Shown: positions 35,969 through 60,300, numbered from the stretch's first letter. The stretch: DNA of 64,000 nt from an uncultured delta proteobacterium (GCA_963769935.1 CAVYNY010000038.1:1-64000); one strand, 5' to 3'. Notes: generated by a model from the letters alone, not told the origin. Translations and numbers: made by a program.

Positions 35969-36133
35969 TCAAAAGTTATTGTTGTATGCCATTTCAAAAA
36001 AAATTTTCTCCCGTCAGCTTTTTACGTGACCGGTTATTCATAAGAAACCGCCTTTGATTCATCTTTATTTATCTACAAATAGTCAGTGAGCGTTCTAAAA
36101 ACTATTAACGACAAACAGAGGGAGGAGAGCGGC

Positions 36134-37423
36134 ATGAAATGGGGAAAAAATTTTTGGTATCCGGTATTGGCAGTAATGTTGATGGTAACCGTTTACGCCA
36201 CGGCAGTGAGGGCCGATCAGACCGACAAACTGATAAAAATCCTCATTGATAAAGGCATTATTACGAGCGAGGAAGCAAAATCTCTGGAAAAGGAGGTCAA
36301 GGGGGAGGCATCAGAAAAGGAGGCCAAGAAAGAGGCACCCGCCGCTGAGGACTGGACCAAGAAGATCGAGGTCGGCTATAAAAAAGGCGCCTATATCAAA
36401 ACCCCCGATGACCGCTACTCTCTGAAGCTAAACGTTCGAACCCAGGGCCTGTTCAGGTATGAGAACCAGGAAGATGCAAAGGACACGGCAAGCTTTAGTG
36501 TCAAACGCGCCCGGCTTCTGGCAGGGGGCAACATGTTTTACCCCTGGATGCAATATTTCACCCAGGTTACTCTGGAAGGCAGCAGCGCGGCATTGCGGGA
36601 TGCCTACATCGAGGCCGCTTATTATGACTGGGCCAAACCGAGAATCGGGCAGTATAAAGTGCCCTTTGACCGGGAATTCCTCACTTCGGCGTTTAATCTC
36701 GAACTTATCGATCGGTCCATCGCCAGCAGTGCGTTTTCCCTGCAGCGGGACATCGGCGTCCAGGTTTCAGGGAATATCCTGCAAAATCAGTTAGCCTACG
36801 CTGTGGGAATGTTCAACGGCAGTGGGGCGAATCAGGTTAATCAGGATCAGAATTTCATGTATGTAGGGCGCATCGTCTATACCCCTTTTGGTTCTTTTCC
36901 CTATTCGGAGGGGGCGCTGGACACGCCGGCCACCCCGAAGCTGGCCGTCGGTGCGGCCGGCGCGTATCTGCCCGGCCTGGAACCGGGCGAGAGGAAAACA
37001 CTGGCGGGCCCTTTGGGCAATACCAATATAGTCCCCGTGAATAGCGATGTATATGAACTGACGGCGGATCTGACTTTCAAGTATCTAAATTTCTTTTTCG
37101 AAGGCGGCTACTATTTCCGCAATATCGATCCGGAAAAGTCTACTCCTTATGGCAGTGAAAACGCCCAGGGGTTCTTCCTTCAAGGGGGGTATTTTTTGGT
37201 TCCGAAAAAATTTGAACTGGCCGGCCGTTATTCCTGGGTGAACCCGAATAATCCCGACCAGACCAACGACAACGAGCAGCAGGAGTATACGGGCGGGTTA
37301 AGCTACTATATTGACGGGCACAATTTAAAGCTCCAGGCCAACTATTCATATTTCGACAACGAAACCACGACCGGTAATCAAGACGACCAGGTGGTGCAGG
37401 GCATGATGACTTTGGCCTTCTAA
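36134..37423 (+). CDS. OprO/OprP-like anion-selective porin
   Basis: Signal peptide, LIDKGIIT N-terminal helix, RIGQYKVPF, terminal Phe. Confidence 0.8.
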   Translation: MKWGKNFWYPVLAVMLMVTVYATAVRADQTDKLIKILIDKGIITSEEAKSLEKEVKGEASEKEAKKEAPAAEDWTKKIEVGYKKGAYIKTPDDRYSLKLNVRTQGLFRYENQEDAKDTASFSVKRARLLAGGNMFYPWMQYFTQVTLEGSSAALRDAYIEAAYYDWAKPRIGQYKVPFDREFLTSAFNLELIDRSIASSAFSLQRDIGVQVSGNILQNQLAYAVGMFNGSGANQVNQDQNFMYVGRIVYTPFGSFPYSEGALDTPATPKLAVGAAGAYLPGLEPGERKTLAGPLGNTNIVPVNSDVYELTADLTFKYLNFFFEGGYYFRNIDPEKSTPYGSENAQGFFLQGGYFLVPKKFELAGRYSWVNPNNPDQTNDNEQQEYTGGLSYYIDGHNLKLQANYSYFDNETTTGNQDDQVVQGMMTLAF

Positions 37424-37465: not shown

Positions 37466-38278
37466 ATGAAAATCTATCGAAACTTAGTGGTCTTGGTTGC
37501 GCTTCTTGCCCTTTCAATGCCTTTGTCCGTATCAGCCGATTCATTAACGCTTTACGCTGCAGGAAGTTTGAAGGCAGCCCTCGGCGATGTGGCGGCTTCC
37601 TATGAAAAAATCTATAAGACGAAAGTGACCACAAAATTCGGCCCGAGCGGCCTTTTGAGAAAGTCCATTGAAGGCGGTGAAAATCCCGATGTTTTTGCTT
37701 CTGCGAATATGGCTCACCCCGAAAAACTCGCATCCGGCGGATGGGGAAGCCCGGTAGTGTTGTTTGCCCGCAATCAGCTTTGTGCATTGGCTCAGCCTGA
37801 TGTTGAGGTAACAGCCGACAATCTTTTAAATTCCCTTATGGATAAGAACGTCCGGCTGGGAACTTCTACACCAAAAGCAGATCCAAGCGGCGACTATGCC
37901 TGGGAACTCTTTCGAAAGGCAGATACGATAAAGAAGGGGAGCTTTGCGACGCTTTCCGGTAAGGCGCTTCAGCTCACTGGTGGACCGGACAGTGAGAAAG
38001 CTCCCGCAGGACGCAACCAATACGGATGGGTAATGGGCGAGAAGAAGGCAGACGTCTTCCTTACCTACTGCACCAATGCCGTATTGGCTCGAAAAGAAGT
38101 GCCAATCCTTAAGATCGTCAGGATACCTGAAGCGCTTTCGGTAGGGGCCGACTACGGCCTTTTAGTAAGGGATAAAGCGCCGAAGGAGGCCTGGCGGCTG
38201 GCGATGTATATTTTGTCACCCGAGGGCCAAAAGATACTCAAAGAATATGGTTTTGAAGCTACCGCAATTCCAAAATAA
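37466..38278 (+). CDS. modA: Molybdate-binding periplasmic protein
   Basis: YAAGSL, FGPSGLL, DVFASAN, PKADPSGDYA. Confidence 0.88.
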   Translation: MKIYRNLVVLVALLALSMPLSVSADSLTLYAAGSLKAALGDVAASYEKIYKTKVTTKFGPSGLLRKSIEGGENPDVFASANMAHPEKLASGGWGSPVVLFARNQLCALAQPDVEVTADNLLNSLMDKNVRLGTSTPKADPSGDYAWELFRKADTIKKGSFATLSGKALQLTGGPDSEKAPAGRNQYGWVMGEKKADVFLTYCTNAVLARKEVPILKIVRIPEALSVGADYGLLVRDKAPKEAWRLAMYILSPEGQKILKEYGFEATAIPK

Positions 38279-39453
38279 TGATGGATCACCCAGTGCAGCT
38301 CACCTATTTAGACAATGCAGCGACGACGTTCCCGAAGCCTCGGGAAGTGTTGCGGCAAATGACGGAAATCTATTCCCGGCTGGGGGTGTCTCCAGGCCGG
38401 GGAGGCTACGATTTGGCGGTGGAGGCATCCGAATTCGTCGAACAAACCAGGCGCAAAGTGGCGAATTTCTTCGGTGCATCCGACCCGCAGCGCGTCATCT
38501 TCACCGCCAATGCCACCGACGCACTGAACCTGGTGATTCAGGGCGTTTTGCAGCCCGGCGACCATGCGATCGCAACCCGGCTGGAACACAACTCCGTATT
38601 GCGCCCGCTGGATCATCTGCGGCAGCGTGGATTGCTCGAATACGATCTCGTGCCATTCAACGCCGGTGGATTCATCGATCCGGACGATGTAATCGCCAGG
38701 GTGCGATCCGACACCCGGCTGGTCATCATCACCCACGCGTCCAATGTTCTCGGCACCGTTCAGCCGGTCGCGGAAACCGCGCGGTTGTGCGCGCAACGCG
38801 GCGTCCCCGTGGTTATTGACGCCGCTCAGAGCGCCGGCAAGATCCCGATCGACATGCAGCGCTGGGGCATCGCGGCCGTGGCCTTTACGGGCCATAAATC
38901 GCTCTGCGGCCCCTCCGGAATCGGGGGGTTAGTTGCGGCGGACGGATTCGACATCCGGACGACCCGGTTCGGCGGCACCGGAATCGAGTCGCGCAGCTTG
39001 ACCCACACGCAAAGCTATCCCCACCGGCTGGAAGCGGGTACCATCAACCTGCTGGGGATTGCCGGTTTGTCAGCCGGGCTGGATTTCATCCTGGCTGAGG
39101 ACCTGGACGCAGTCCACCAAAGGGGGATGGCGCTGTTGACGCGGCTTCGCAACGGTCTGGCGCAACTGCCGGATATGGATCTGTACTGCGCCGAGAATCT
39201 CGATCATCACATGGCGGTCCTGACCGTCAATGTCAAAGGCATGGATCCTGAAGACGTGGGCGCCATTCTGGACGGGGACTTTAATATCGCCGTCCGCACC
39301 GGCCTTCACTGCGCGCCCCTGGTTCACGAAGACTTGAATACCAGCCCCCGCGGGGGCGTCCGCTTCAGCCTCGGCCGCTTCAACACGGATGAGGACATCG
39401 ACTGGGCCCTGGCAGCCATGGGTAAAATCGCCCACCGCCATAGAGGAGCATAA
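38278..39453 (+). CDS. Class V aminotransferase / cysteine desulfurase-family protein
   Basis: YLDNAATT, EHNSV, DAAQSAG, TGHK, RTGLHCAP. Confidence 0.9.
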   Translation: MMDHPVQLTYLDNAATTFPKPREVLRQMTEIYSRLGVSPGRGGYDLAVEASEFVEQTRRKVANFFGASDPQRVIFTANATDALNLVIQGVLQPGDHAIATRLEHNSVLRPLDHLRQRGLLEYDLVPFNAGGFIDPDDVIARVRSDTRLVIITHASNVLGTVQPVAETARLCAQRGVPVVIDAAQSAGKIPIDMQRWGIAAVAFTGHKSLCGPSGIGGLVAADGFDIRTTRFGGTGIESRSLTHTQSYPHRLEAGTINLLGIAGLSAGLDFILAEDLDAVHQRGMALLTRLRNGLAQLPDMDLYCAENLDHHMAVLTVNVKGMDPEDVGAILDGDFNIAVRTGLHCAPLVHEDLNTSPRGGVRFSLGRFNTDEDIDWALAAMGKIAHRHRGA

Positions 39454-39479
39454 ACTGAATGGACGGCTGCAGATTTTTT

Positions 39480-39815
39480 ATGGATCTGATGTTTTCGCTG
39501 GATGCGGCCTTTCTTGCCGGGCAGAGCTTCGGCGCCCGGCATCCGGATAGTTGGGGGGAGCGGTTTTTTCAGGAACTCTCCTTGAACCACCCGGAATGGG
39601 TGGGCCAAAAGCTCCCGATCTACATGAAGGCCTCCGAGATTATTCACTATTTTGCATTTTTTGAGCGAGCCGATGAAATGGTTCCGGCATTCTATGAAAA
39701 ACCGGAAGCGCTGCTGCAGATGGTGCTGATGCTATTGCGCCATGGCGGGAACAGTCTGTTGGCGGAGGATGCCAGGGAACAGGGCATGGCCGGCAATCAT
39801 GGAAAAGCAGCTTGA
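39480..39815 (+). CDS. Hypothetical protein
   Basis: Co-oriented ORF after the desulfurase; no family recognised; start may be 39459. Confidence 0.5.
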   Translation: MDLMFSLDAAFLAGQSFGARHPDSWGERFFQELSLNHPEWVGQKLPIYMKASEIIHYFAFFERADEMVPAFYEKPEALLQMVLMLLRHGGNSLLAEDAREQGMAGNHGKAA

Positions 39816-39859
39816 AAGAGTAAAAAATCCTGGCCCGGAGACTCAGGCTTTGACTTCAC

Positions 39860-39977
39860 CCCAGCTTCCGGCTCGCAGAGCCTGCAGCTCGGAGAGAGGG
39901 GTGGTGCTTGAAGTCACATAACCCATGGGATATTGGAATAGCGGCCTCCGGCTCGTAGAGCCTACGGATCGGGGAGA
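39860..39977. repeat. 46-bp dispersed repeat, copy 2, plus a degenerate third unit
   Basis: Matches 25991..26036; TCCGGCTCGTAGAGCCTACG variant at 39947. Confidence 0.75.
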
Positions 39978-40024
39978 AAAGTGGAATATTGAAGTCGTGG
40001 AGTAATGGAAAAGGAGGAGCGAGC

Positions 40025-42682
40025 ATGAAAAGTGTGAAATTGAAAATTAACGGGCTTCAGCATCAGTTTATCGTCGAGGACGACCGCGTCCTCCTGGATC
40101 TCCTGCGGAAAAATCTGAGGCTTACCGGCGCCAAGCAGTCCTGCGACCGCAAGGGTCAATGCGGCGCATGCACGGTCATCGTAAACGGGAAAGCATCCCG
40201 GTCGTGCCTCCTGAAGGTCGGGAGCCTCGATGGCGCGGAGATCATCACCGTAGAGGGGCTGGGAACCCCTCGGAACCCCCATCTGATCCAGGAAGCCTTT
40301 GTCTTGGCGGGAGCGATTCAATGCGGGTATTGCACCCCGGGGTTCATTATGGCAGCCAAAGCGCTGTTGGACGAAAACCCCGACCCCGGCCGGGACGAGA
40401 TTAAACAGGCTTTACAGCGCAATCTCTGCCGCTGCACCGGCTACACCCGGATCATTGAGGCCGTCGAGCTGGCTGCGCGCTTCCTGCGCGGTGAGGCCCG
40501 CCCGGAAGATCTGAAGCCCGCCACTGCCGAAAGTCAAATCGGCGTATCCCATCCTCGGCCATGGTCTCTGCTCAAGGCCTGCGGGCAGGCCGATTTCACA
40601 GCCGACATCTCCGTCCCGGACGCCCTTGAGCTGGCGGTCGTCCGCAGCCCGCACCACCATGCTAGGATAAAGCATATTGACTTCTCGGAGGCTGAAAAGA
40701 TGCCAGGAGTTGTCGGGATCATTACGGCCAGGGACATCCGCGGCACAAATTCCGTGGGAGTCGCCGTCAAAGACCAGCCGCTTTTGTGCGATGACCTGGC
40801 GCCCGTACTCGGCTCTCCGGTGGCGATCGTGGCCGCTGAAACCAGGAAGCAGGCCCTCGCGGCGGTTCAGGGTGTGCGGGTCGACTACGAGGTGTTGCCG
40901 CGCGTCGCCACCCCGGAGGCCGCGCTGGCCGAAGGCTCCCCGGAAATCCATCCCGGCACGCCCAACCTCTGCCACTCCCGACGCCAGGTCAGAGGCGATG
41001 CCGGGACAGCCCTGAAGGACTCGGCGGCCGTGGTTGCAGCGGAGTTTTATTCGCAGCTCATCCATCAGGCGCCGCTCGAGCCGGAGGCTGCGGTCGCGTA
41101 CCTGGAAGGCCGGGGCGAGGATGCGCAGCTGGTGGTCATTGGCCGGTCCATCTGGATCCACTATCACGTGGAAGTGCTTCAGGACGCCCTCGGGTGGGGG
41201 AACATCCGCTATGAGGAGGCGTTTGCCGGGGGCCAATTCGGCATCAAAGTCGATATTACCTCCGAAGCCATTGCCGGAGCGGCGGCGCTGCACTTTCAAA
41301 GGCCGGTCCGCTACATCCCCAGCCTGACCGAATCGATGTGGATGACGACCAAGCGGCACCCTTTCCGGATGAAAGTGCGGCTGGGCTCCGACGCGGACGG
41401 CCGATTGATGGGGTATGACATTGACCTCGTTGTGGAGAACGGCGCCTATATGTCGATCGGCCCGGAGGTGGTCAGCCGAGCGCTGGGAATGCTCAGCGGC
41501 GGCTACCACATCCCGAACGTGTCCGCCGACGCGAAACTGGTGTATACCAACAATGCCTGGGGTGGAGCCGCCCGCGGCGCCGGACCGCCGCAGGTGAACT
41601 TTGCCCTGGAGTCGGCGATGGATCTGCTGGCCGCTGAACTGAAAATGGATCCTTACGAATTTAGACGGATCAATGCCCTGCAGCCGGGACAGTCCATGTC
41701 CACCGGCCATGTGGCTGAGGAATGGGCATTCGGAAATTGCCTGGCCAAGATCGGACCGATTTATAAGCGCGCCCGCGAGGAAGCCGCAGCCTACAAGTCC
41801 GGACCGGTTCGGCGGGGCGTGGGTCTGGCAGGCTCCAGCTTCGGCGTAGGCGATCCCGGCGACACATCCCATGTCGCCGTTGAGCTCGAGCCGGAAGGTG
41901 TCCTCGCCGTCTACGCCTCGGTGGCGGATCCCGGTGAGGGCAATGACGCCATGCTGACGCAGCTCGCATCGCATGTCATGGGCATCCCCCCCGAAAAAGT
42001 CCGGCTGGTGACCCGCAACACGGAGCAAACCCCCAATTCGGGGATTTCCGCCGGATCGAGGCAGACCTACATGTCCGGCAAGGCAATGGTGAGCGCCATT
42101 GAACTTCTGAAAGACGCTATGCAGGAGTCCGGCGCCAAAACCCGGGAAGATCTTTTGGCGCGGGGGAAGCCGACTCGCTACCTGGCGATGCATGTCCTGC
42201 CGCACACGGGCATGGATATGGAAACCGGCCAGGGCGAAGTCTGGGAGTCCCGCTGCCACGGCGTGCAAATGGCGGAAGTCGAAGTCAACCTGGAAAGCGG
42301 GGCGGTTAAAATCTTGAAGATGACGGCCGTGGTCGACCCGGGAACAATCATCAATCCGCTGGCTGTGATCTGCCAGCTGGAAGGCGGCATGGACATGGGA
42401 GCGGGCATGGCCCTGCGGGAGGAATATGTTCACGGAGAGACCGTCGACTGGGTAACGTATCGGTTTCCCACGATGAAGACCGCTTTCGAAATGGAAACCA
42501 TCCTGCTCGAGTCGCCCAGGAAGGGCGGACCCCTGGGGGCCACCGGGGTGGGTGAATTCACCCTCGTCCCGACCCATCCGGCCATCATCAATGCCATCGC
42601 AGACGCGGCTGGAGTCAGGATCTATGACCTGCCGGCAACCCCCGAGAAGATTCTGGCCGCGCTGAATGGCACCGCCGCTTGA
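40025..42682 (+). CDS. Mop-like molybdenum hydroxylase (2x[2Fe-2S] + Moco domains), paralogue A
   Basis: GQCGAC, QCGYCTPG, NLCRCTGY, GGQFG, ARGAGPPQ, GVGE. Confidence 0.92.
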   Translation: MKSVKLKINGLQHQFIVEDDRVLLDLLRKNLRLTGAKQSCDRKGQCGACTVIVNGKASRSCLLKVGSLDGAEIITVEGLGTPRNPHLIQEAFVLAGAIQCGYCTPGFIMAAKALLDENPDPGRDEIKQALQRNLCRCTGYTRIIEAVELAARFLRGEARPEDLKPATAESQIGVSHPRPWSLLKACGQADFTADISVPDALELAVVRSPHHHARIKHIDFSEAEKMPGVVGIITARDIRGTNSVGVAVKDQPLLCDDLAPVLGSPVAIVAAETRKQALAAVQGVRVDYEVLPRVATPEAALAEGSPEIHPGTPNLCHSRRQVRGDAGTALKDSAAVVAAEFYSQLIHQAPLEPEAAVAYLEGRGEDAQLVVIGRSIWIHYHVEVLQDALGWGNIRYEEAFAGGQFGIKVDITSEAIAGAAALHFQRPVRYIPSLTESMWMTTKRHPFRMKVRLGSDADGRLMGYDIDLVVENGAYMSIGPEVVSRALGMLSGGYHIPNVSADAKLVYTNNAWGGAARGAGPPQVNFALESAMDLLAAELKMDPYEFRRINALQPGQSMSTGHVAEEWAFGNCLAKIGPIYKRAREEAAAYKSGPVRRGVGLAGSSFGVGDPGDTSHVAVELEPEGVLAVYASVADPGEGNDAMLTQLASHVMGIPPEKVRLVTRNTEQTPNSGISAGSRQTYMSGKAMVSAIELLKDAMQESGAKTREDLLARGKPTRYLAMHVLPHTGMDMETGQGEVWESRCHGVQMAEVEVNLESGAVKILKMTAVVDPGTIINPLAVICQLEGGMDMGAGMALREEYVHGETVDWVTYRFPTMKTAFEMETILLESPRKGGPLGATGVGEFTLVPTHPAIINAIADAAGVRIYDLPATPEKILAALNGTAA

Positions 42683-43062
42683 CCGATGGGATCTTAATTG
42701 TGCGCAAGCAGGACCATGTCACGGATCACGGCGGGACGCCAAGGGCGGACGCCGCCCTAAAGATCGTCCTGGATGGGGAAGGGTTTTTGAAAAACCCTTC
42801 CCTTTGGTCGGAGGATGTAGCAGCGGCTATGGCCGGGGAAGCAGGGATCCAGCTCCTGAGCGCGGCGCAGTGGAAAGTCCTGCGATTCATCCGGGCTTAC
42901 TACACCGAGCAAGGCAAGGCACCGCTTAATTATCACATCAAAGCAGCAACGGGCATGCGCCTTCAGGAAATCGAAGCCCTGTTCCCGGGCGGGATTTCCA
43001 ACGGTGCAAAACGGCTGGCGGGTTTGCCCAGATCCAGGGGATGCACCGCCGGCTCAGGGTGA
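42679..43062 (+). CDS. TusE/DsrC-family sulfur carrier, single Cys
   Basis: DGEGFL...W, QWKVLRFIRAYY, LFP, RLAGLPRSRGC; overlaps the oxidoreductase stop. Confidence 0.85.
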   Translation: MTDGILIVRKQDHVTDHGGTPRADAALKIVLDGEGFLKNPSLWSEDVAAAMAGEAGIQLLSAAQWKVLRFIRAYYTEQGKAPLNYHIKAATGMRLQEIEALFPGGISNGAKRLAGLPRSRGCTAGSG

Positions 43063-43129
43063 AAACGTTGCCTAAATCTGTATAACTGTCTAGAAGAAGT
43101 TGGCGCCAGACCGTTGCATTTGCGAAGTC

Positions 43130-43235
43130 GATGCTGGATGCTCGATACTTGAAGTACTTGATACTGGATTTTCAGGCATGCACCGGCAGTGAAATCCACA
43201 AAAATCCAGCATCCAGAAACCAGTATCCAGGATCA
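43130..43235. repeat. Inverted heptamer repeats (GATGCTG / CCAGCAT) between convergent genes
   Basis: GATGCTGGATGCTCGATACT...ATCCAGCATCCAGAAACCAGTATCCAG. Confidence 0.65.
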
Positions 43236-43304
43236 ATCCATAATACCCATGACTTTCTTCGGAACAGCCAGAGTTCGATGCAATACTTTATGCAATTATA
43301 GGGT

Positions 43305-43661
43305 TTAGCTGCAGGTTTTGGGGTTGGGCAGCCCGGCCAGCCGTCTGGCCCCCTTCCTGAGACCCTCCGGAAAAAGGCTCTCCAGTTCCAGCAGGCTCAT
43401 CGCGATTCCCTTCCGAAGCTCGTTGTTCAGGGGCGCCCGGCCGTTGTAAGCATAAAACTCACGCAGGAAACGGACCACCTGTCGCTGCCGGTCGGTTATG
43501 CGCTCAATGCCGCCTTCGCGGGCCAGGGCCTCGAAGATTTCCTCCGACCAATCCTCAAAATGCTCAAAGAATCCCTCATCGTCAAAGGCGATATCGCGGC
43601 CGGCGATAACGCGCAGGCAACGCTTGGCATCTTTTTCCTCTTCCGGTGGTGAAATGCCCAT
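43305..43661 (-). CDS. TusE/DsrC-family sulfur carrier
   Basis: DDEGFF..DWSEE, FLREFY, LFPEG, RLAGLPNPKTCS. Confidence 0.85.
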   Translation of the reverse strand: MGISPPEEEKDAKRCLRVIAGRDIAFDDEGFFEHFEDWSEEIFEALAREGGIERITDRQRQVVRFLREFYAYNGRAPLNNELRKGIAMSLLELESLFPEGLRKGARRLAGLPNPKTCS

Positions 43662-43668
43662 GGTCGAA

Positions 43669-46335
43669 TTATCGAGCGGCTGCCAGCGCGGCCTTGATTT
43701 TTTCAGGGGTGGCCGGCAACTCGCAGATCCACACCCCGGTGGCATTTTTGATGGCATTGATCACGGCCGGCGCAGTAGGCACCATGCACATCTCACCGAC
43801 GCCGGTGGCACCCAGCGGCCCCTTCGGACGCGGCGTTTCCCTGAAGATGACTTCCATATCGAAGGCATCCTGGATTTTCGGGAAACTAAAGGTCCTCCAG
43901 TCCCGGGTCTTGCCGGCCACGTATTCCTCCCGCAGCGCGAAGCCTACCCCCATGTCCATGCCGCCTTCCAACTGGCCGGTCAGGTTCTGGGGATTGATGA
44001 CGGGTCCGGCATCGACCGCCGTGGTCATCTTGAGAACCCTGACGTTGCCGGTTTCGGTATTCACTTCAAGCTCGACCATCTGCACGGCATGCACCTGGGA
44101 CTCGAAAGACGGTCCCTGACCGGTAACGGGGTCCAGGGAACCTTCGTCTTCGTTTCGTTTGCGTCCGACATAGCGTTTGGGCTTTCCCGCCGCATCGAGC
44201 GCGGCCGAAGTTTTAGCCCCGGTTTCCAGCATGGCCGCTTGCAACTGCTCCAGCGCGTTGAGCAGGGCGCCTCCGATCATATAGGTGACCCGGCTGCCGG
44301 CGGCCGGACCGCTGGCGGCGGTGTTGATGGTGTCGCGGGTATGCAGCCGCACCCGGTCCAGGGGAATTTTCATGAACTCGGCCGTGAGCTGGCTCAGCAT
44401 GGCATCGTTGCCCTCGCCGGGGTCGGCCGCCGCAGTGTAGACGCTGATGCCGCCGTCGGGGTCGAGTTCCGCGGCGGCCACGGAGGCATCGCCGGGCATG
44501 GCGATGCCGAAGGCCCCGGTGCCCAGGCCAACGCCGCGCTTCAGCATGCCCGAATGGCCGGCGGCAGCCTCCTTGACAGCCCTCTGGTAGTGGGGCCGCA
44601 GAGCTTCCATCAACTCCGGAAAAGGCCATTCCTGCACCACCCGTCCGGTGGATTTGCTCTGGCCCGGCTTCAAGGAATTGCGCAGCCGGAAATCGAACGG
44701 ATTCATGGCGAGCTGGTCGGCCAGCATGTCCATGGCGCATTCCAGGGCGAAGTTGGCCTGCGGCGGCCCCGCGCCGCGGGCCGCGCTGCCCCAGGGATTG
44801 TTGGTGTAGACCAGCCGGCCCCGCGCCGCGATGTTGGGGATGTTGTAGGAGCCCGAGAGCATGAGCAGGGCGCGAAGGACCACCACGTGGCCGATGGAGT
44901 AGTAGGCGCCGTTGTCCACGACAATGTCGTTGCAGAAGGCCGTCAGGTTGCCCTGGCGGTCCGCCGCCAGCTTGACGCCGCATGTCAAAGGCATGGCGCT
45001 TGGAGGTCATCAGCATGCTTTCGGCCAGGCTGGGGATATACCGAACCGGCCGTTTAAAGTGGATGGCGGCGGCACCGGCGATGCCCTCGGAGATCACATC
45101 GATCTTGATTCCGAACTGGCTGCCGGAGATAGGCCTCGATGTAACGCATATTCTCCCAGCCCAGGGCGGTTTGAAGCATGCCCAGATGAAAGTGAATATT
45201 GATGCTGCGGCCGATGATCACCAGCTGGTCGTCCCCGCCCGTGTCGTCCTTTTCCCAGTAAGCAATCGTGGCTTCGGGCTCGAGCGGGGCCTGGTGATTG
45301 ATCTGGGTCTTGAAGCGGGCCTCGACCACCGCGGCCGAGCCTTGCAGGGCAGCCTCCGCATCCCCTTTGATCTGCGGCTGGTCATAACACAGATTGGCAA
45401 GCTCCGGATGAAGCTGAACCGCCGCGGGGGCCAGCGCCGCTTCCGGATCGCTCAAGGCCGGCAGCGGTTCGAGTTGAACGTTTACCTTTTCCAGCGCGGC
45501 CGCGGCATTCTCACGGGTGTCCGCCGCTACCGCCAGGATGGGGTCTCCGATATAGCGGACCTCGTCCTTGCACAGCACGGGACGGTCCGCCACGATGTAT
45601 TTCAGGATATTGGTGCCCTTGATGTCCGCGGCGGTCAGACACTCCGGCGACGCCCGGCATCTTTTCGGCCTGCGAAGCGTCGATTGAGACAATCCGCGCA
45701 TGGGGGACCTCGCTGCGCAGTACGGCCAGCTCGAGCGCCCCCTTGAGATGGAAGTCCGCCGTAAATTTTGCCGTGCCGCAAGCCTTGGCCATGGCGGACG
45801 GGCGCGGATGGGAGATGCCCATGACGCCGTCCGCCGGCTTGGGCCTTACGGTCTCAGGCGTGGTTTCGCCGCGTAGAAATCGGCCGGCCAGCTGCACGGC
45901 TTCGATGATTTTCTTGTAACCGGTGCAGCGGCACAGGTTCCGGCGCAGGGCCTGTTTGATCTCCTCGACCGTGGGCTTGGGATTTGCATCCAGCAGGGCC
46001 TTGGCGGCCATGATCATCCCGGGGGTGCAGAATCCGCACTGGATCGCACCGGCCAGCACGAAGGCCTCCTGGATAAGATGGGGATTGTCCGGCGTCCCCA
46101 AGCCCTCAACCGTGATAATGTCGGCACCATCCAGTTCGGCCGCCCGGAACAGACAGGAACGCTGCGCCCTGCCGTTTACCACCACCGTGCAGGCGCCGCA
46201 TTGGCCCTTGCGGTCACAGGATTGCTTGGCACCGGTCAGCCGCAGGTCCTCCCGCAGCAGATCCAGGAGTACGGTTTTACGATCGGCGATCAAATCACGC
46301 CATACGCCGTTGACTCGCAGTCGAATCTTACGCAT
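43669..46335 (-). pseudogene. Mop-like molybdenum hydroxylase paralogue B with three +1 frameshifts (possibly sequencing errors)
   Basis: Colinear with paralogue A across four frames; single extra bases near 45639, 45128 and 44978. Confidence 0.85.
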
Positions 46336-46438: not shown

Positions 46439-48070
46439 TTATTCGGATTCCATGAACGGGTAGCGATAGTCGGTTGCAGGGGCGAAGGTCTCCTTGATTG
46501 TGCGCGGGCTGACCCAGCGCAGCAGATTGAGCAGCGTGCCGGCCTTGTCGTTGGTTCCCGAAGCCCGGCTGCCGCCGAAAGGCTGCTGGCCGATCATGGC
46601 GCCGGTGGGCTTGTCGTTGATGTAGAAGTTTCCGGCGGCGTTTACCAATACCCGTTTGGCGGTTACGACGGCCTGCCGCTGCACGGCAAATATGGAGCCG
46701 GTCAAGGCGTAGGGCGACGTGCGGTCGCACAGGCGCAGGGTTTCCTCATAGCGGTCGTCCTCGTAAATAAACAGTGTGAGCACCGGCCCGAAGATTTCCT
46801 CCACCATGGTTTTGAAGTCCGGTTTCTTGGCCAGGATAAGCGTGGGTTGGATGAAGTAGCCCGTGCGGTCGTCGCAGGAGCCGCCGGCAATGATCTCGGC
46901 GTCGGGGGATTTCTGCGCAAACTCGATGTAGCCGGCGATCTTGTCGAAGGCGGCCTTGTCGATAACGGCATTGACGAAATTGCTGAAATCTTCCGGTGGG
47001 CCCACCCGGATGCTGCCGACCATCTCCAATAGAATATCTTTCAGCGATTGCCAGAGGGATTGCGGGATGTAGGCGCGGGAGGCCGCCGAACACTTCTGGC
47101 CCTGGTATTCGAAGGCGCCGCGCACCAGCGCCACGGCCAGGGCCTGCGGATCGGCGGAAGCGTGGGCGAATATGAAATCCTTGCCGCCGGTCTCGCCCAC
47201 CAGGCGGGGGTAGCTGCGGTATTGCCCGATATTGGCTCCGACGGTTTGCCAGATCTCCCGGAACACGGCCGTCGAACCCGTGAAATGCACGCCGGCCAGT
47301 TCGGGATGCTTCAGCAGCGCCGGTCCGAGCTGGCTGCCGGGACCCGGTAAAAAATTGATGACGCCGTCCGGCAGCCCGGCTTCATGAAAGATCTGCATCA
47401 GGTGATAGGCAGCATAGACCGCCGTGGATGCCGGCTTCCAGATCACGGTATTGCCGAGCAGGGCCGGCGCGGCCGCCAGGTTGACCCCCAGTGCGGTAAA
47501 ATTGAAGGGCGAAATCGCGAATACGAACCCCTCCAGCGGCCGGTATTCCATCTGGTTCCAGACGCCGGGGGCGGAGAGGGGCTGCAGGCCGAACAGGCGA
47601 GCCGCGTTCCAGCAGTAAAATCGCAGAAAATCGGCGCTTTCGCAGGCAGCCTCGATCTCGGCTTGAAAGATGTTCTTGCCCTGGCCCAGCATGGTGGCGG
47701 CGTTCATCTGCATGCGGTGGGAGCCTGCGATAAGATCGGCCGCTTTCATAAAGACGGCCAGTCGATCCGCCCAGGCCATCGAGGACCATTCCACGGCGGC
47801 CTCACGCGCCGCATCGACGGCCATGGCGATTTCCTGCGGGCCCGCCAGGTGATAGACAGCCAGCCGGTGGCGGTGATCGTGGGGCACGATGCAGGCGGCG
47901 GTCCGCTCGGTTCGCACTTCGCGGCCGCCGATGATCAGCGGGATTTCGATTTCTTTGCCCCTGAGCTCGCCCAGGACCGCGGTTATCCGGCGCCGCTCGG
48001 GGCTGCCCGGCCCATAGGACAAGACCGGTTCATTTTGCGGCGGTTCGATGGTGACAGTGGCATTTATCAT
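46439..48070 (-). CDS. pruA: Delta-1-pyrroline-5-carboxylate (glutamate semialdehyde) dehydrogenase
   Basis: NEPV, ISPFNFT, FTGST, GETGGKDF, YQGQKCSA, GQQPFGG; start placed at ATG 48070. Confidence 0.92.
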   Translation of the reverse strand: MINATVTIEPPQNEPVLSYGPGSPERRRITAVLGELRGKEIEIPLIIGGREVRTERTAACIVPHDHRHRLAVYHLAGPQEIAMAVDAAREAAVEWSSMAWADRLAVFMKAADLIAGSHRMQMNAATMLGQGKNIFQAEIEAACESADFLRFYCWNAARLFGLQPLSAPGVWNQMEYRPLEGFVFAISPFNFTALGVNLAAAPALLGNTVIWKPASTAVYAAYHLMQIFHEAGLPDGVINFLPGPGSQLGPALLKHPELAGVHFTGSTAVFREIWQTVGANIGQYRSYPRLVGETGGKDFIFAHASADPQALAVALVRGAFEYQGQKCSAASRAYIPQSLWQSLKDILLEMVGSIRVGPPEDFSNFVNAVIDKAAFDKIAGYIEFAQKSPDAEIIAGGSCDDRTGYFIQPTLILAKKPDFKTMVEEIFGPVLTLFIYEDDRYEETLRLCDRTSPYALTGSIFAVQRQAVVTAKRVLVNAAGNFYINDKPTGAMIGQQPFGGSRASGTNDKAGTLLNLLRWVSPRTIKETFAPATDYRYPFMESE

Positions 48071-48313
48071 GGCAGCTTGCTTGCTCCTTTCTATACCTAA
48101 CGACATAAACTCTGGTGCATACGCACACAGTGTTCTGCCTATTTGATCCTGTTCATAAATTAAAGATCAGTATTCAAAAGGCAAGTAAAAAAATTTTATA
48201 ACGCAGTGGCTATCATGTTAAAAATGGCCTAGCCAATGGCCCAAAATCCTAACCGGCAGTAAGGGCACTATCCATATCGGCTTGATGCCCGAAGCGATTA
48301 TCATAGAGCTTTG

Positions 48314-48404: not shown

Positions 48405-48758
48405 TCAGCTGTCGAGGTAGGCCGCCATCAGATTGTCGTAAACGTCGTTGGATTCGGCCTCGACGATCTGCGAGATGCGCTTGAACTGTTTCAGGAGGGT
48501 TTCGCCCAGGGGCGTCAGGCGGGAGCCCTGGGGCTGCCGGATCAGCAGTGCTTTGCCCAGTCGCTTCTCGGTGGCGCTGATCCGCGCCCAGATCGCCCGA
48601 TAGCTCATCTTAAGCTCTTTGGCGGCGGCCTGCAGCGAACCAAGGCGCTGCACCGCCTCAAGAATGCGGTACCTGCCTAATCCGAATACCACCTTTCCCC
48701 GGGCGTCTTCCACCCAGATTTTCGACCGGATGCGAAACGGTGATTCTTTGGTTACCAT
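48405..48758 (-). CDS. ModE-like winged-helix regulator lacking TOBE domains
   Basis: SKIWVE..G.VVFGLGR..ILEAV...GSL..AAKELKMSYRAIW; AGGAGG RBS; 117 aa. Confidence 0.88.
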   Translation of the reverse strand: MVTKESPFRIRSKIWVEDARGKVVFGLGRYRILEAVQRLGSLQAAAKELKMSYRAIWARISATEKRLGKALLIRQPQGSRLTPLGETLLKQFKRISQIVEAESNDVYDNLMAAYLDS

Positions 48759-48833
48759 GGGAAGCCTCCTTTTTGGGCTCAGCAACCACCTGCGGATGAT
48801 TTGATCTCGTTGCCGATGAATGATTTTGAATTC

Positions 48834-48933
48834 CACCGCAAAGAGCGCAAAGGGTACTTTTCTTTTCGTTTGCCTTTGAGAGGAAGGCATATAATAAATA
48901 TTTTATCTCTACGTCCTTCGCGCCTCTGCGGTG
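48834..48933. repeat. Imperfect inverted repeat (REP-like)
   Basis: CACCGCAAAGAGCGCAAAGG...CCTTCGCGCCTCTGCGGTG. Confidence 0.55.
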
Positions 48934-49334: not shown

Positions 49335-50477
49335 TTAGACCGCGCATAGGGCTGGGCTGCAGCCTCGCAGGCTTGCCGGCGATCGACCGGTGAGGGCTTC
49401 AATCCGTGCGGCTAATTTGCGGGCGGTGGCGAGCCTGCGGCGGGCGCCGTCGCGGGCCTGCGAATCGACGGGAAATGCGTTCAGGCGCCGGTCAAAGCGT
49501 TCGGCGAGCCCCACGAAGCGATCTTCCGCCACCAGTTTGTCGGCCAGGAACACCACCTCGGCCTCCCGGACCGGCTGCTCCTCGCTCCAGGGAATTTCCA
49601 TGTGGGTGGCGACGATTTCGGCCATACGGGGCATGTGCAGCTCCCGCAACAGTTTTGCTCCTCCACGGGCGTGGTCGAGTTCGCCGCGGGCCATGTCATG
49701 CACGAGGGCGGCCGCACAGATCAGATGGAGATCCAGCGCAAGGCCCGCCTGATTGAGGGCCTTTCCAAGGCGCAAGGCCAGGTCGGCGACGGCACGGCCG
49801 TGCGCTGCCACATCCGGCGGAACCTGCAGCCGGTCGTTCAGCAGCGCTTCACACTCCGCCGGGGAAAAGACTTCCCGGCGCTTCAGCCGTTCGACCATGT
49901 GGAGATAATCCGCGGGCCGATCCATGTCATGGTGGATGAACTCATCGACCACCGGTACATCGACGGCGTGCTGCTCCAAGCGGGCCAACAGAGCCCCCAG
50001 ACCGCCGCTCCCGCGCCATTGCAGGAGGCCGCGGCTATGATATCCGCCGATAAGCGGCGGGTGGCCGCGCCGCCCGCCGAAGGTCGGGTGGCAAATGCCA
50101 GCGGTTCCGGCCGGAAATGCCTGCAGGAGGTCGCCGATGGTGGCCGCCCGCACGAAGGGAATGTCCACGGGCAGCACAAAAAAGGACGCGGTATTCTCAG
50201 CCAGACTCGCCACGCCGGCCGCCACCGAGGAGAACATACCCTCGGCATAGCGGGCATTTACGACGCTGCGCGCACCCCAGCGCTCGACGTGGGACATCAA
50301 CTCGTCTGCGCGGTGGCCGACCACGACATGAATGCGGTTGATCCCGCCGGACTGAAACAGACGGATAACCCGCTCCAGAACCGTCATTCCGCCCAATTTC
50401 ATCAGGGGCTTGAAATCGCCCATGCGCTTTGAAAATCCGGCCGCCAATACGAGAGCGGTGGCAGATTCCGGGTTCAT
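49335..50477 (-). CDS. MocA-like NTP transferase fused to an HD domain (DVU_1551-like)
   Basis: LAAGFSKRMG, GMFSSV, GHPPLI; AAALVHD. Confidence 0.88.
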   Translation of the reverse strand: MNPESATALVLAAGFSKRMGDFKPLMKLGGMTVLERVIRLFQSGGINRIHVVVGHRADELMSHVERWGARSVVNARYAEGMFSSVAAGVASLAENTASFFVLPVDIPFVRAATIGDLLQAFPAGTAGICHPTFGGRRGHPPLIGGYHSRGLLQWRGSGGLGALLARLEQHAVDVPVVDEFIHHDMDRPADYLHMVERLKRREVFSPAECEALLNDRLQVPPDVAAHGRAVADLALRLGKALNQAGLALDLHLICAAALVHDMARGELDHARGGAKLLRELHMPRMAEIVATHMEIPWSEEQPVREAEVVFLADKLVAEDRFVGLAERFDRRLNAFPVDSQARDGARRRLATARKLAARIEALTGRSPASLRGCSPALCAV

Positions 50478-51526
50478 GCGCGCCGACCTTTCGCGCGGAC
50501 CTGGACCAGTTCGGCCACGATGCTCAAGGCAATCTCCTCGGGGGTTTCCGCGTTGATGTCCAGACCGATGGGGGAGTGCACGCGTTTCAAATCAGCCGCG
50601 GTAAATCCTTGTCTCAACAGCGCGTTGAAGATATGGTCCCGCTTGCCCCGGCTGCCGATCATGCCGATGTAGGCGGCCTCTGTGCGCAGCGCCTGCATCA
50701 ACACCGTCTGGTCGTGCAGATGGCCGCGGGTCAAAATGACGACAAAGGCGCCGCTGTCGAACGCCATCCCCGGCAGGGTCTCGTCGAAATTCGCAACCAC
50801 ACGGATTTCCTCAGCCTGCGGGAAACGTTCGGCATTGGCGAATTCGGCCCGATCATCCACGACCCGCACCCGGAATCCGACGAAAGCAGCGAGTCGCGCC
50901 GTGGGCTGCGCGACGTGCCCGGCTCCGAAAAGAACCACGGTATCCGCCGGAAGAACCGGGTCGAAGAGAATCAATGTCTCCCCGAGAGCCACCGTGCGCA
51001 GACAACCGGCTGCGCTATGCTCGCGAACGAGCTTCGCGAGGGTCGCGGCGTCGAGCGTCGAATCACCGCAAACCACGCGCTGGTTTTTGAGCAGGCAATG
51101 GCCGATGTCTGCCACCTTTTCACCGGCGAACCGCAGCACGGTCAAGAAGCTGCAGGATTCCGGCGTGTCCTGAACATCCCGCCAGCCTTTGAGCACGACG
51201 GCCGCCGGACTCCCGGGATCGACGAACTCCAGCAGCACCTCCAGACGTCCACCGCAGATCATGTCCATCGCCGCCAGATCGGACGGCTTCATATCGAAGG
51301 GCATCAGCAGCGGACGCCGCGTTGAAAGCACCTTGTCGGCTTTTTGGATCACCCGCGCCTCGAGCATTCCGCCGCCGATGGTGCCTATGGTTTGGCCGGT
51401 TCCGGTTATGATCATGCGGGTGCCCGCCAGGCGGGGGGTGGACCCGCGGCGGCTGACAATCGTCGCCAGGGCGAATTCCAGATGATCGTCCACCAGCCGC
51501 CCGGCCGCTTCTGCAATCAGGTTCAT
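50474..51526 (-). CDS. xdhC: XdhC/CoxI-family Moco maturation factor
   Basis: GSTPR, GTIGGG, MICGG, GAGHVA, YIGMIGS, PIGLDI..TPEEIA. Confidence 0.92.
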   Translation of the reverse strand: MNLIAEAAGRLVDDHLEFALATIVSRRGSTPRLAGTRMIITGTGQTIGTIGGGMLEARVIQKADKVLSTRRPLLMPFDMKPSDLAAMDMICGGRLEVLLEFVDPGSPAAVVLKGWRDVQDTPESCSFLTVLRFAGEKVADIGHCLLKNQRVVCGDSTLDAATLAKLVREHSAAGCLRTVALGETLILFDPVLPADTVVLFGAGHVAQPTARLAAFVGFRVRVVDDRAEFANAERFPQAEEIRVVANFDETLPGMAFDSGAFVVILTRGHLHDQTVLMQALRTEAAYIGMIGSRGKRDHIFNALLRQGFTAADLKRVHSPIGLDINAETPEEIALSIVAELVQVRAKGRRA

Positions 51527-51573
51527 GATATTTGCTCCACTATTGAAATCCTGGTCCTCTCGGACAGGATCCT

Positions 51574-54308: not shown

Positions 54309-54401
54309 TTAAAAACTGGTCCCCTGAGGCAACGACCACCCCACCGGGGTAAAATTAAACACGATGTAAGCGGGGCCGCTGAGCCAGAACTCTCTTCTCC
54401 T

Positions 54402-54845: not shown

Positions 54846-54847
54846 CG

Positions 54848-57579: not shown

Positions 57580-60300
57580 CTATTTGGCTTTCAGGCCGGC
57601 CAGCACTTTTTCCGGCAGGGCCGGCAGTTGGGTGATACGCACCCCCGTAGCGTTGTTGATGGCATTGATCACCGCTACGTGGGAGGATGTCAGCGGCAGT
57701 TCACCGACACCGGCCGCACCAAAGGGCCCGTGTTCGCGCGGATTTTCGAAGTAATGAATTTCGATGGCATCCGGAATGGCATTGATGTAAGGGATGCCGC
57801 AGGCCGCCAGGCTGGTGTGCTTTTTGAGGTCTTCGAAATCCTCCGACAGGGCCAGTCCGATACCCTGAGCCACGCCGCCGTAAATCTGCCCGTCCACGAC
57901 CAGTTTGTTGTTGATTTTACCCACATCGGCCATGACCGTGTATTTGTCCACCTGGGTCTTGCCGCTCTGGGTGTCCACGGTGACTTCGGCCATAAAGACC
58001 CCGTACATGTAAACGGCAAAAGGTGAGCCCTGCCCGTTTTCATCGCAGGGCGAACACATGGAGGCCGTCCATTTGCCGGAATACTTCAAGGGGATATTCT
58101 CCGCCTTCATCTCCGCATAGGTGCGGTAAGCGCCGTCTTTCTTGCGCATGGCGTTGAGCAGCATCTCGCAGCCGTTCTTGATGGCGTTGCCGGTCATCAC
58201 CTGTGAGCGGCTGCCGCCGGCCGGACCGCTGTTGGGGGTCACGGCGGTATCGTTCATGAGAAGCCTGATCCGGTCGGGAGCGAGATTCAGCGGGCGCAAC
58301 GCCTCGTGGCAGGTACCGAGGGCGCCCATGTCGGCCCCCTGTCCGTGGTCTTCCCATGAGCAGGCCAGCACAACTCCCTCGGGCGTCAGTTCCACACTCG
58401 CCTCCGAGGCGTCCGGGCCGTCCAAGCCGCAGCCGTAGATTCCAAGCGACAGCCCAACCCCCTTTCTCTGCGCGTCAGTCGATTCAGCCCTGGCATTTTT
58501 GAGGGCGGCCTGGTAGAGGGGCCGCAGTTTATCGAACATTTCCGGGAAGCTGTAAACTTCCGGCGCCTGACCGGTAGGGGCGGTATCGCCGGGACGGTAG
58601 ATGTTTTTGTACCGCAGCTCCAGGGGGTCGATGCCCATCTTTTCAGCAAGTTCGTCCATCAGGCTTTCGGATGCCAGAAAACTCTGCGGAGAGCCATAGG
58701 CGCGGAAGGCAGAGCCCCAGGCATGGTTGGTGCACACGGTCCTGCCCAGGCCGCGGATGTTGGGGATGCCGTAGCCCGAACCGATGAACTGGGCCCCGCG
58801 CACAGTCAGCAGGTCGCCGAACTCCGAATAGGGGCCGTGGTCTACCGCCCAGTCGCTTTCCATGGCGATGATCTTGCCGCTCTCATCCGCACCGTATTTA
58901 AGCTTGATGAAAAACGGCGAACGTTTGCCGGTGTAAGTGATGTGCTGGAAGTAGTCGTATTTCAAGGTTACCGGTTTACCGGTGGCGATGGCCGCCACCC
59001 CGAGGAGGGCCTCCATGGTCGGGCTGAACTTATAGCCGAAGGTTCCGCCCGCGGGATTCTGGACGATCCGCAGCTTTTCAGGCTCGATGCCGAGACCGGG
59101 ACAGATCATCGCGTGATGCAGGTGGATGCCGATGCTTTTCGAATGGATGCACAGCCGGTCTTCATCATCGAAGTAGGCCAGGCCGACGTCCGGCTCCATG
59201 GTGAGGTGCGGCTGGCGCTGCAGGTAGAATTCGTCTTCGACCACGTTAGCGGCCGACTGCATGAGGGGTCCGGTGTCATCGCCCTTGGCGATCTTCTGCT
59301 CGTAGTAGACGTTGGGGGTGCCGGGGTGGATCTCCATGGCATCTTCGGCCATGGCGGCGGGCGCACTCATGTAAGCGGGCAGTTCCTCCAACTCAACCAT
59401 GACCTTTTCAGCCGCAGCCCGGGCATTGGCCTCCGTGTCCGCGGCTACGATGGCGATGGCGTCGCCGAACTGGAAGACTTTTTCGTCGCACAGAATGGGG
59501 CGATCCCAGCCGTCGCCCTTGTTGGAGGCGAACGTGATCAGACCGGTGATGCGGTTTTTGCCTTTAACATCTTTGTGGGTGATGACTTTGGCCACGCCGG
59601 GCATCTTTTCGGCTAGGGAGGTATCAATGGATAAAATCTTGGCATGGGACACCTTGGCCTGGACCAGGGCCAGTCTCAGGGTACCGGGCGGCATTTTAAG
59701 GCCCAGATCGGCCCCGTAGTCGGTGGTTCCGGTGACCTTGGCCACGGCCGAGGGCCGCGGATAGGCCGTGCCCCAGATCCGGCCGTCGGCCGGCAGTTTA
59801 AACGCCAGATCTTTCAAAGTCATCTCGCCCCGCACCACCTTGGCCGCGTCCATGACGGCATCCACCAGCGGCTTGTAGCCGGTGCAGCGGCAGGCGTTGC
59901 GGTGCTTCTGGAACCAATCCCGCACCTGCCGGCGTGTGGGAGCGTTGTTTTCGTCAAGCAGGCCCTTGGCCGAAACAATGAAACCGGGGCTGCAGAACCC
60001 GCACTGGGCGCCGCCGTGTACGGTCCAGGCCAGCTGCAGGGCATGCAGGTTGTCGGGGGTGCCGATGCCCTCGATGGTGGTGACACAGGCGCCGTCCTCC
60101 ACGCGTTTCACTTTGGTAATACAGGAGCGGACAACCTTGCCGTCCAGAATCACCGAACAGCAGCCGCACTGCCCCTGGCCGCACCCCACCTTGGTCCCGG
60201 TGAGTTTCAGCTGCTCCCTCAACACGTCCGCGAGCATGGTGTCGGGCTCCACGATGACGGTCTTGGGCATGCCGTTGATATGAAGCGTCCTTTTGATCAT
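57580..60300 (-). CDS. mop: Molybdopterin aldehyde oxidoreductase Mop
   Basis: 906 aa; GCGQGQCGCC, QCGFCSPG, GGTFGYKF, FRAYG, GVGELP as in Desulfovibrio Mop. Confidence 0.93.
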   Translation of the reverse strand: MIKRTLHINGMPKTVIVEPDTMLADVLREQLKLTGTKVGCGQGQCGCCSVILDGKVVRSCITKVKRVEDGACVTTIEGIGTPDNLHALQLAWTVHGGAQCGFCSPGFIVSAKGLLDENNAPTRRQVRDWFQKHRNACRCTGYKPLVDAVMDAAKVVRGEMTLKDLAFKLPADGRIWGTAYPRPSAVAKVTGTTDYGADLGLKMPPGTLRLALVQAKVSHAKILSIDTSLAEKMPGVAKVITHKDVKGKNRITGLITFASNKGDGWDRPILCDEKVFQFGDAIAIVAADTEANARAAAEKVMVELEELPAYMSAPAAMAEDAMEIHPGTPNVYYEQKIAKGDDTGPLMQSAANVVEDEFYLQRQPHLTMEPDVGLAYFDDEDRLCIHSKSIGIHLHHAMICPGLGIEPEKLRIVQNPAGGTFGYKFSPTMEALLGVAAIATGKPVTLKYDYFQHITYTGKRSPFFIKLKYGADESGKIIAMESDWAVDHGPYSEFGDLLTVRGAQFIGSGYGIPNIRGLGRTVCTNHAWGSAFRAYGSPQSFLASESLMDELAEKMGIDPLELRYKNIYRPGDTAPTGQAPEVYSFPEMFDKLRPLYQAALKNARAESTDAQRKGVGLSLGIYGCGLDGPDASEASVELTPEGVVLACSWEDHGQGADMGALGTCHEALRPLNLAPDRIRLLMNDTAVTPNSGPAGGSRSQVMTGNAIKNGCEMLLNAMRKKDGAYRTYAEMKAENIPLKYSGKWTASMCSPCDENGQGSPFAVYMYGVFMAEVTVDTQSGKTQVDKYTVMADVGKINNKLVVDGQIYGGVAQGIGLALSEDFEDLKKHTSLAACGIPYINAIPDAIEIHYFENPREHGPFGAAGVGELPLTSSHVAVINAINNATGVRITQLPALPEKVLAGLKAK

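Follow-up and report, generated by a model that had tools for sequence, protein, structure and literature searches.

In the 64,000-nucleotide stretch of DNA analysed here (the window; GCA_963769935.1 CAVYNY010000038.1:1-64000, from an uncultured delta proteobacterium), two convergent cassettes, each consisting of a molybdenum (Mo) hydroxylase gene and a gene encoding a small protein of the DsrC/TusE fold (the carrier), lie beside a gene encoding a cysteine desulfurase (Table 1); enzyme, carrier and desulfurase are together referred to as the module. Our data point to an undescribed route in which a DsrC-fold carrier delivers sulfur straight to the molybdenum centre. We assign a probability of roughly 0.55 to a relay in which the desulfurase charges the carrier with a persulfide and the carrier then adds the sulfido ligand (Mo=S) to the folded enzyme or restores it there. 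A relay from desulfurase to TusE-like carrier to molybdenum cofactor (Moco) had been proposed in the sequence-only reading of the window, and it gains support from the clade-specific linkage, the co-divergence and the complex model described below. No published description of the enzyme-carrier pairing was found in the full-text literature searched, which was mostly without subscription papers and without supplements.

Profile matches bear out the two cassettes and the neighbouring desulfurase as first noticed, with a carrier directly behind each paralogue: the start of carrier 1 overlaps the stop of copy 1, while carrier 2 is located 7 bp behind copy 2, and the copy 2 cassette converges on the copy 1 cassette. 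The identity between the two enzymes (Table 1) agrees with the earlier view of copy 2 as a second paralogue, although its three frameshifts had been overlooked. The window desulfurase scores above the cut-off of the TIGR01977 family, with its lysine and loop cysteine present (Table 1), and below that of the selenocysteine lyase SclA (312 against 525 bits). This single desulfurase probably serves both cassettes; the same pattern of two enzyme-carrier pairs and one adjacent desulfurase is present in another module-bearing genome, G210. The host genome contains three DsrC-family genes in total, namely carriers 1 and 2 and a true two-Cys DsrC; the latter and dsrA are both located outside the window. 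A second TIGR01977 desulfurase, 54% identical to that of the window and carrier-free (L122:8767-9978, contig C16), lies near genes that, read from sequence only, resemble pyrimidine-degradation genes and a DsrE gene.

Copy 1 combines two [2Fe-2S] domains with the Moco domains and has no FAD domain (Pfam matches over cut-off); it retains the catalytic Glu844 as well as Arg517, Arg485, Gln99, Gln784 and the Fe-S cysteines, and its predicted structure (mean predicted local distance difference test, pLDDT, 94) superimposes on 1sij with a template modelling (TM) score of 0.97. Domains and fold thus place it in the xanthine oxidase (XO) family, as do Glu844 and Arg517, each found in all 137 aligned relatives. 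Its nearest characterised relatives are the aldehyde oxidoreductases DgAOR and DdAOR, at about 38% (37-40%) identity, and it falls short of the Mop family cut-off (NF045668, 784.8 bits against 1100); it belongs instead to a distinct, so far unstudied clade whose members are 55-92% identical. The unusual motifs shared by the two copies had been taken as a feature of the pair; they are present, but they are signatures of this clade, ARGAGPPQ occurring in 134 of the 137 relatives and a first Fe-S loop one residue longer, with a five-residue cysteine spacing, in 135 (residues here and below are given in copy 1 numbering, those of DgAOR being counted from the alignment). The GQG motif reads GEG, with Glu638 for Gln in 137/137, and Ala516 (137/137) and Ala519 (136/137) replace DgAOR Phe532 and Tyr535, respectively. 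Relatives of the module are found in records of Desulfobacterota, Bacillota and Chloroflexota.

DgAOR grips aromatic aldehydes between Phe425 and Tyr535 (PMC4726530). This aromatic sandwich is gone in copy 1, which has Val409 and Ala519 at these sites; the residue at the Phe425 site is Val, Ile, Thr or Leu in the clade, and pocket positions 377, 409, 478 and 610 vary widely. Sulfolobus GAOR2, which oxidises glyceraldehyde, has Ile and Ala at the sandwich sites (PMC4726530). From the residues of the clade at these sites, a non-aromatic aldehyde would be its likeliest substrate.

Both carriers, which are 37% identical to each other, exceed the TIGR03342 superfamily cut-off of 53.5 bits (63.3 and 68.3 bits) and score far below TusE proper (NF008562; 48.1 and 46.6 bits against a cut-off of 191). 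Their arm, N-P-K/R-x-C, differs by more than one change from the DiSCo one-Cys motif, setting them apart from dissimilatory DsrC. The earlier observation of one Cys in the C-terminal arm holds for both carriers, with the second DsrC Cys replaced by Lys or Arg; carrier 2 also has an extra, unconserved N-terminal Cys. A family search returned 1496 matches, possibly including other family members; among the best 120 of these, the arm Cys was found in 120/120 and Arg at the second DsrC Cys position in 120/120. In a sample of 300 genomes the subfamily was set apart by score (at least 140 bits, as compared to 106 for the next match), and the cultured Desulforhopalus singaporensis has an annotated carrier. 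In the DsrC of A. vinosum, only the penultimate Cys binds sulfur, including after incubation with IscS and cysteine (PMC3397948). The PDB relatives listed for the carrier belong to DsrC/TusE, some of them bound to DsrAB; none is paired with a Mo-hydroxylase. Three apparent fusions of the carrier to the desulfurase or to a Mo domain (P0241, P0248 and P0272) were rejected as frameshift or deletion artefacts; in two of them the carrier Cys is missing, and the junction of one is scrambled. The family matches also include tandem double-DsrC proteins of about 243 aa (P0242-P0271 and P0273), of which the two inspected carry a Cys in the second arm but not in the first, and a 541-aa protein in which five stretches resemble DsrC.

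A co-occurrence survey, suggested as a check in the sequence-only reading, found the linkage conserved. Among 79 loci kept of 102 confirmed on GTDB contigs (14 clade and 65 outgroup loci), the carrier and then the desulfurase directly follow the enzyme in 9/14 clade loci; three others, all from Chloroflexota, have a SufS-like gene and two have nothing. No DsrC-family gene was found in the 65 outgroup loci (flanks of at most 8 kb, often on short contigs), two of which have a desulfurase, more distant. In a second survey, covering 300 other genomes sampled evenly from the phylum, all seven strong carrier matches (in six genomes) lie directly behind a clade enzyme, with the desulfurase next in six. 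A forward test in the same sample, in which three candidates were scored per genome, identified 14 clade genes in 13 genomes; the carrier is present in 8/14 (one of these loci has a frameshift), with the desulfurase in 7/8, while 5/14 have SufS-like and IscU-like genes and 1/14 has only an IscU-like match upstream. The desulfurase thus accompanies the carrier in 16 of 17 carrier loci outside the host genome (9/9 and 7/8). Within the host genome, the carrier is present at both clade copies and at none of seven other Mo-hydroxylase loci. The module often occurs among Moco genes, and xdhC is near it in the window and in three surveyed loci (L008, L121 and L139).

Enzyme and carrier trees agree, with copy 1 grouping with L120/L121 and copy 2 with L115-L118, support in the carrier tree being modest. 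Over the same 14 loci, from which the broken or partial L018 and L029 were omitted, distances correlate between enzyme and carrier (rho = 0.75), as compared to 0.30 between enzyme and desulfurase and 0.14 between carrier and desulfurase (p = 0.12); as judged from these sequence distances, the carrier co-diverges with the enzyme and not with the desulfurase. Enzymes without a carrier all fall into a single subclade (bootstrap 99) that branches from within the carrier-bearing enzymes, indicating that the carrier was replaced once. In the replacement loci (L140:6320-8299, L141, L142, L144:5546-7427, L145:10417-12174 and L068), a desulfurase stays beside the enzyme; it is SufS-like, 25-29% identical to that of the window, and keeps the Lys and Cys wherever the sequence is complete. 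Of the scaffold cysteines, its IscU-like partner retains the first but not the third, and a CxC lies close to the second; this protein is possibly a second new sulfur carrier. Since a desulfurase and a Cys-bearing acceptor were recruited twice, the data suggest that the enzyme clade has a standing need for sulfur.

Complex modelling, the other computational check suggested at the outset, gave a score of 0.84 for copy 1 (as a monomer, with a 137-row alignment) and carrier 1 (residues 20-127), as compared to 0.00 for the best of three controls. The pass mark of the procedure is reached by 116/157 solved complexes and 2/215 mismatched pairs, counts that are only rough for the alignments used here. 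The model runs share at least 61% of contacts, with a partner pLDDT of at least 80. On the carrier side, the modelled interface comprises residues 77-85, the most family-specific loop, and 117-121; on the enzyme side it comprises residues 246, 377-394, 612-618, 666-674 and 720-728, wholly on the Mo domain with the Fe-S domains untouched. We take enzyme residue 379 to be the equivalent of bovine XO Lys771, and residues 612-616 that of Val1011-Leu1014. Residues 246 and 674 align to bovine XO Leu648 and Pro1076 (at match ends, assuming no gaps nearby), both named among channel-lining residues (PMC8979054). The model supports docking of the carrier at the substrate-funnel mouth, and the data point to a carrier that binds the enzyme itself rather than acting via XdhC.

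In the proposed relay, the desulfurase would take sulfur from cysteine, as is the function of its family, and load it, as a persulfide, onto the one Cys in the C-terminal arm of the carrier. The carrier would then dock through its G-R/K-A-P-x-N loop at the funnel mouth, and its arm would reach down to install or renew Mo=S on the folded, cofactor-loaded enzyme, not on the XdhC-bound cofactor; each paralogue would keep its own matched carrier, with one desulfurase feeding both. As judged from the pocket, the enzyme would most likely oxidise a non-aromatic aldehyde to the acid, with electrons leaving via the [2Fe-2S] clusters. Installation or renewal of the sulfido ligand by the carrier would explain why the sulfido-free Mop has no carrier and its sister clade has one.

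Several observations weigh against this relay. DgAOR, the closest relative of solved structure, works with no sulfido ligand (PMC3877041, PMC10223205), so that a need of the clade for this ligand is presumptive. In Rhodobacter, NifS4 sulfurates the XdhC-bound cofactor before insertion and does not bind xanthine dehydrogenase (PMC2997495). In the model, Cys122 is outside the confident contacts, and the enzyme was modelled as a monomer whereas enzymes of this type are homodimeric; carrier 1 is itself divergent, with five residues behind Cys122. The 25 interface columns are no better than matched columns at separating carrier-bearing from carrier-less enzymes (p = 0.48). Clade loci without an adjacent desulfurase-carrier pair exist (L012, L013 and L143), as does one with a carrier and no desulfurase (L120), and the survey counts, given without statistics, include related loci that are not independent. 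The idea that interface residues were lost together with the carrier was rejected, since the 25-column set is not special and the loss is a single event; positions 616 and 720 are charged in 8/8 carrier-less enzymes tested.

The alternative that survives best, itself doubtful, is that the enzyme consumes the persulfide of the carrier as a co-substrate in every catalytic cycle, much as DsrAB uses DsrC, with sulfur passing to an organic substrate (aldehyde to thioacid, or C-H to C-SH) or with carrier-bound sulfur being oxidised or reduced. The docking at the funnel, the one matched carrier per paralogue and the pocket opened by Ala516 and Ala519 would all fit such a role, and DsrC itself offers Cys-bound sulfur to an enzyme (PMC3397948). 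However, GAOR2, an ordinary glyceraldehyde oxidoreductase, has the same kind of Ile/Ala replacements (PMC4726530), which also weakened the argument from the wider pocket to a protein substrate; the variability of other pocket positions fits a range of small substrates, genes that would use a thioacid do not recur in the surveyed neighbourhoods of the module, and one subclade lost the carrier with the active-site signature kept. More doubtful still is the specific version in which the clade comprises sulfur-transferring Mo enzymes, the carrier being recharged from cysteine and placing its arm in the funnel at each turnover, so that sulfur replaces the water-derived oxygen (e.g., aldehyde to thioacid). 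If true, sulfur transfer to a substrate would be new chemistry for the XO family. To our knowledge, no protein co-substrate has so far been reported for this family.

It is unlikely that the module feeds an earlier step (the XdhC-bound cofactor, the molybdopterin dithiolene or the [2Fe-2S] clusters) with no binding of the carrier to the mature enzyme. The known bacterial route does run via XdhC (PMC2997495), xdhC is near several modules and the replacement pair resembles the SufS/IscU Fe-S machinery; but this supply would leave unexplained both the co-divergence and co-duplication of carrier and enzyme and a complex that passes without Fe-S-domain contact, the IscU-like protein has no third scaffold Cys, and Mop, which is carrier-free, depends on this pterin and these clusters too.

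A regulatory or protective role of the carrier, as a plug that shuts the funnel according to the sulfur or redox state of the cell, is quite improbable. The RspA branch of the DsrC family is presumably regulatory. That branch has been named (PMC8477390) and docking at the funnel mouth would suit a plug; however, a plug would not need the adjacent desulfurase, which is present at nearly all carrier loci and is kept after carrier loss.

Gene absences were assessed in five module-bearing genomes besides the host, namely G210, which is 100% complete and has two modules, and four metagenome-assembled genomes whose completeness is not known. Neither dsrA, which the same model finds in the host genome, nor tusD/DsrE (TIGR03012; E. 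coli control positive) was found in any of the five; selD and yqeB are both present in four, and G210 lacks dsrA, selD, yqeB and tusD. The DsrAB background expected of dissimilatory DsrC is thus seen in the host and in 0/5 other module genomes, and the obligate co-occurrence with selD and yqeB that marks the selenium-dependent molybdenum hydroxylase system breaks down in G210; the module accordingly does not require delivery of selenium, coupling to Dsr or a donor of the TusBCD type. It is highly improbable that the enzyme sends aldehyde electrons into the dissimilatory DsrC disulfide/trisulfide cycle, a coupling considered in the sequence-only reading, or that the module delivers selenium, since the dsrA and true DsrC of the host, the naming of the desulfurase family after EF2568 of a selenium-dependent hydroxylase cluster and the frequent selD and yqeB are outweighed by the missing second Cys, these gene absences and a modelled site away from the Fe-S exit.

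The nearest precedent of the module is the Enterococcus faecalis selenium-dependent hydroxylase cluster (EF2566, EF2568 and selD), in which a TIGR01977 desulfurase and a small sulfurtransferase-like protein also occur near a Mo-hydroxylase (PMC2276186). However, EF2566 is SirA/TusA-like, tied to selD and not of the DsrC fold (PMC2276186), whereas the module also occurs without selD and yqeB, and the TIGR03311 score is 559 against 830. With TusE (IscS-TusA-TusBCD-TusE-MnmA) and DsrC (DsrEFH-DsrC-DsrAB), the carrier shares the fold, the penultimate Cys as sulfur site and delivery to a partner enzyme (PMC3397948); it differs in forming a separate subfamily, in its Arg at the second Cys, in occurring in genomes without TusD/DsrE and in its molybdoenzyme partner. 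The IscS-FdhD relay for formate dehydrogenase likewise joins a desulfurase to a dedicated Cys-bearing partner. In eukaryotic ABA3, a Moco sulfurase, a desulfurase and a Cys-bearing partner also sulfurate the molybdenum cofactor (PMC2997495); FdhD and ABA3 partners bind free cofactor, whereas the module carrier is about 120 aa long, has the DsrC fold and is modelled on the enzyme funnel. The XdhC-NifS4 system of Rhodobacter capsulatus shares desulfurase persulfide as the source of Mo=S, but has no small carrier, and sulfuration takes place on XdhC (PMC2997495), whereas in the module a dedicated carrier has evolved together with the enzyme and docks on it in the model. Mop/DgAOR (1sij; NF045668) resembles the clade in its nearly identical fold, in its catalytic Glu and pterin-binding residues, and in combining two [2Fe-2S] domains with the Moco domains on one chain that lacks an FAD domain; the clade differs from it in Val/Ala for Phe425/Tyr535, GEG for GQG, the longer Fe-S loop and its NF045668 score, and Mop/DgAOR in needing no sulfido ligand (PMC3877041, PMC10223205) and in the absence of the carrier from every outgroup locus.

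In the assembly, the reading frame of copy 2 is broken into four frames (tblastn), with breaks near 44977, 45130 and 45638, and its pieces are each 65-78% identical to intact relatives. We compared contigs from 4 of 20 listed sequencing runs, representing near-identical strains; every covering contig has one base fewer at 44977 (4/4 runs), 45130 (3/4) and 45638 (2/4), and base 45121 reads differently in 4/4 runs, a change that restores the family GGQFG motif. Some of these contigs are otherwise 1-2 letters off the window over 370-460 bases. Because the covering contigs lack the three extra bases, the frameshifts are most likely assembly errors and the gene is probably intact in nature; copy 2 as a pseudogene was rejected on the same grounds, and a lesion private to the source strain retains a small probability. 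In a rough check across the genome, 7/155 matched regions had frame changes; two of these belong to copy 2, and several are paralogous genes lying next to each other. The genome is therefore not error-rich overall. Another Mo-hydroxylase gene (contig C20:291768-294552) also shows frame changes in tblastn.

Table 1. Features of the module and its surroundings in the window.
Feature	Coordinates	Strand	Remarks
modA, molybdate-binding protein	37466..38278	+	NF002917, 381 bits (cut-off 264); stop overlaps desulfurase start
Cysteine desulfurase, TIGR01977 family	38278..39453	+	428 bits (cut-off 377); pyridoxal phosphate Lys207, loop Cys345
Orphan open reading frame (ORF), 118 aa, nature unassigned, between desulfurase and copy 1	39459..39815	+	No Pfam match
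Dispersed intergenic repeat, unrelated to the system	39841..39990	no strand	86 blastn matches in genome
Mo-hydroxylase copy 1, intact, 885 aa	40025..42682	+	Pfam over cut-off; ligand residues kept
Carrier 1, DsrC/TusE fold, single Cys122	42679..43062	+	PF04358 and TIGR03342 over cut-off
Carrier 2, DsrC/TusE fold, penultimate Cys	43305..43661	-	PF04358/TIGR03342-type profile matches
Mo-hydroxylase copy 2, ~60% identical to copy 1	43669..46335	-	Three +1 frameshifts in assembly
Glutamate-semialdehyde dehydrogenase, upstream of copy 2 (context)	46439..48106	-	TIGR01236, 769 bits
ModE-like regulator (context)	48405..48890	-	TIGR00637, E 5e-14, under cut-off
MocA-like nucleotidyl (NTP) transferase, Mop operon	49335-50477	-	NF045665 over cut-off
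XdhC, Mop operon	50474-51526	-	NF045664 over cut-off
Canonical Mop-type aldehyde oxidoreductase, without carrier (internal control)	57580..60300	-	38% identical to copy 1

No further copies of the 118-aa ORF were found in the genome or in the fetched loci. A second dispersed intergenic repeat (43130-43250) is matched 22 times in the genome by blastn. Scans for promoters and terminators gave counts no different from chance (8 against 6.8 and 13 against 15.7, respectively); RNA contigs of a relative span both copies in one metatranscriptome, a type of run that can contain DNA. The xdhC gene noticed earlier is indeed nearby, 4 kb from copy 2, but it is part of a neighbouring Mop operon of the DVU_1551-1559 type (49335-61419), which encodes MocA-like, XdhC, CoA-ligase-like, TrsS radical SAM, C_GCAxxG, Fe-S flavoprotein, Mop and MoeA-like proteins. 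The MocA-like protein and XdhC are likely cofactor machinery shared with the module. TrsS carries a Zn-ribbon of the pterin dimethyltransferase family, and a pterin-modifying role of the accessory genes is conceivable; genes similar to them flank the module in Bacillota loci. A 268-aa ORF without Pfam match (61831-62637), a candidate accessory protein of a new type, has relatives near Mo-hydroxylase genes in L055, L142 and L145 (29-38% identity). Directly upstream of modA is a porin-like gene (36086-37423; Porin_O_P, weak match to ExtI), possibly serving oxyanion uptake. Two more multi-subunit Mo-hydroxylase clusters lie past the window (L123, contig C38:60000-79999), giving five such enzymes within about 35 kb.

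Acquisition of Mo=S by bacterial members of the XO family has been worked out mainly for XdhC-NifS4, where sulfur is added before the cofactor is buried. If the proposed relay is true, docking of the carrier on the finished enzyme would represent a second Mo=S route and possibly a means to repair desulfo enzyme, and would add a third function to those already held by the DsrC/TusE fold in sulfite reduction and tRNA thiolation. A further lesson is that a DsrC-like gene with one Cys does not mark an anaerobe as a sulfate reducer. The module is compact, with three small genes, and the clade is sister to the sulfido-free Mop with both present in one genome, making the question of why some members of the family need sulfur directly testable.

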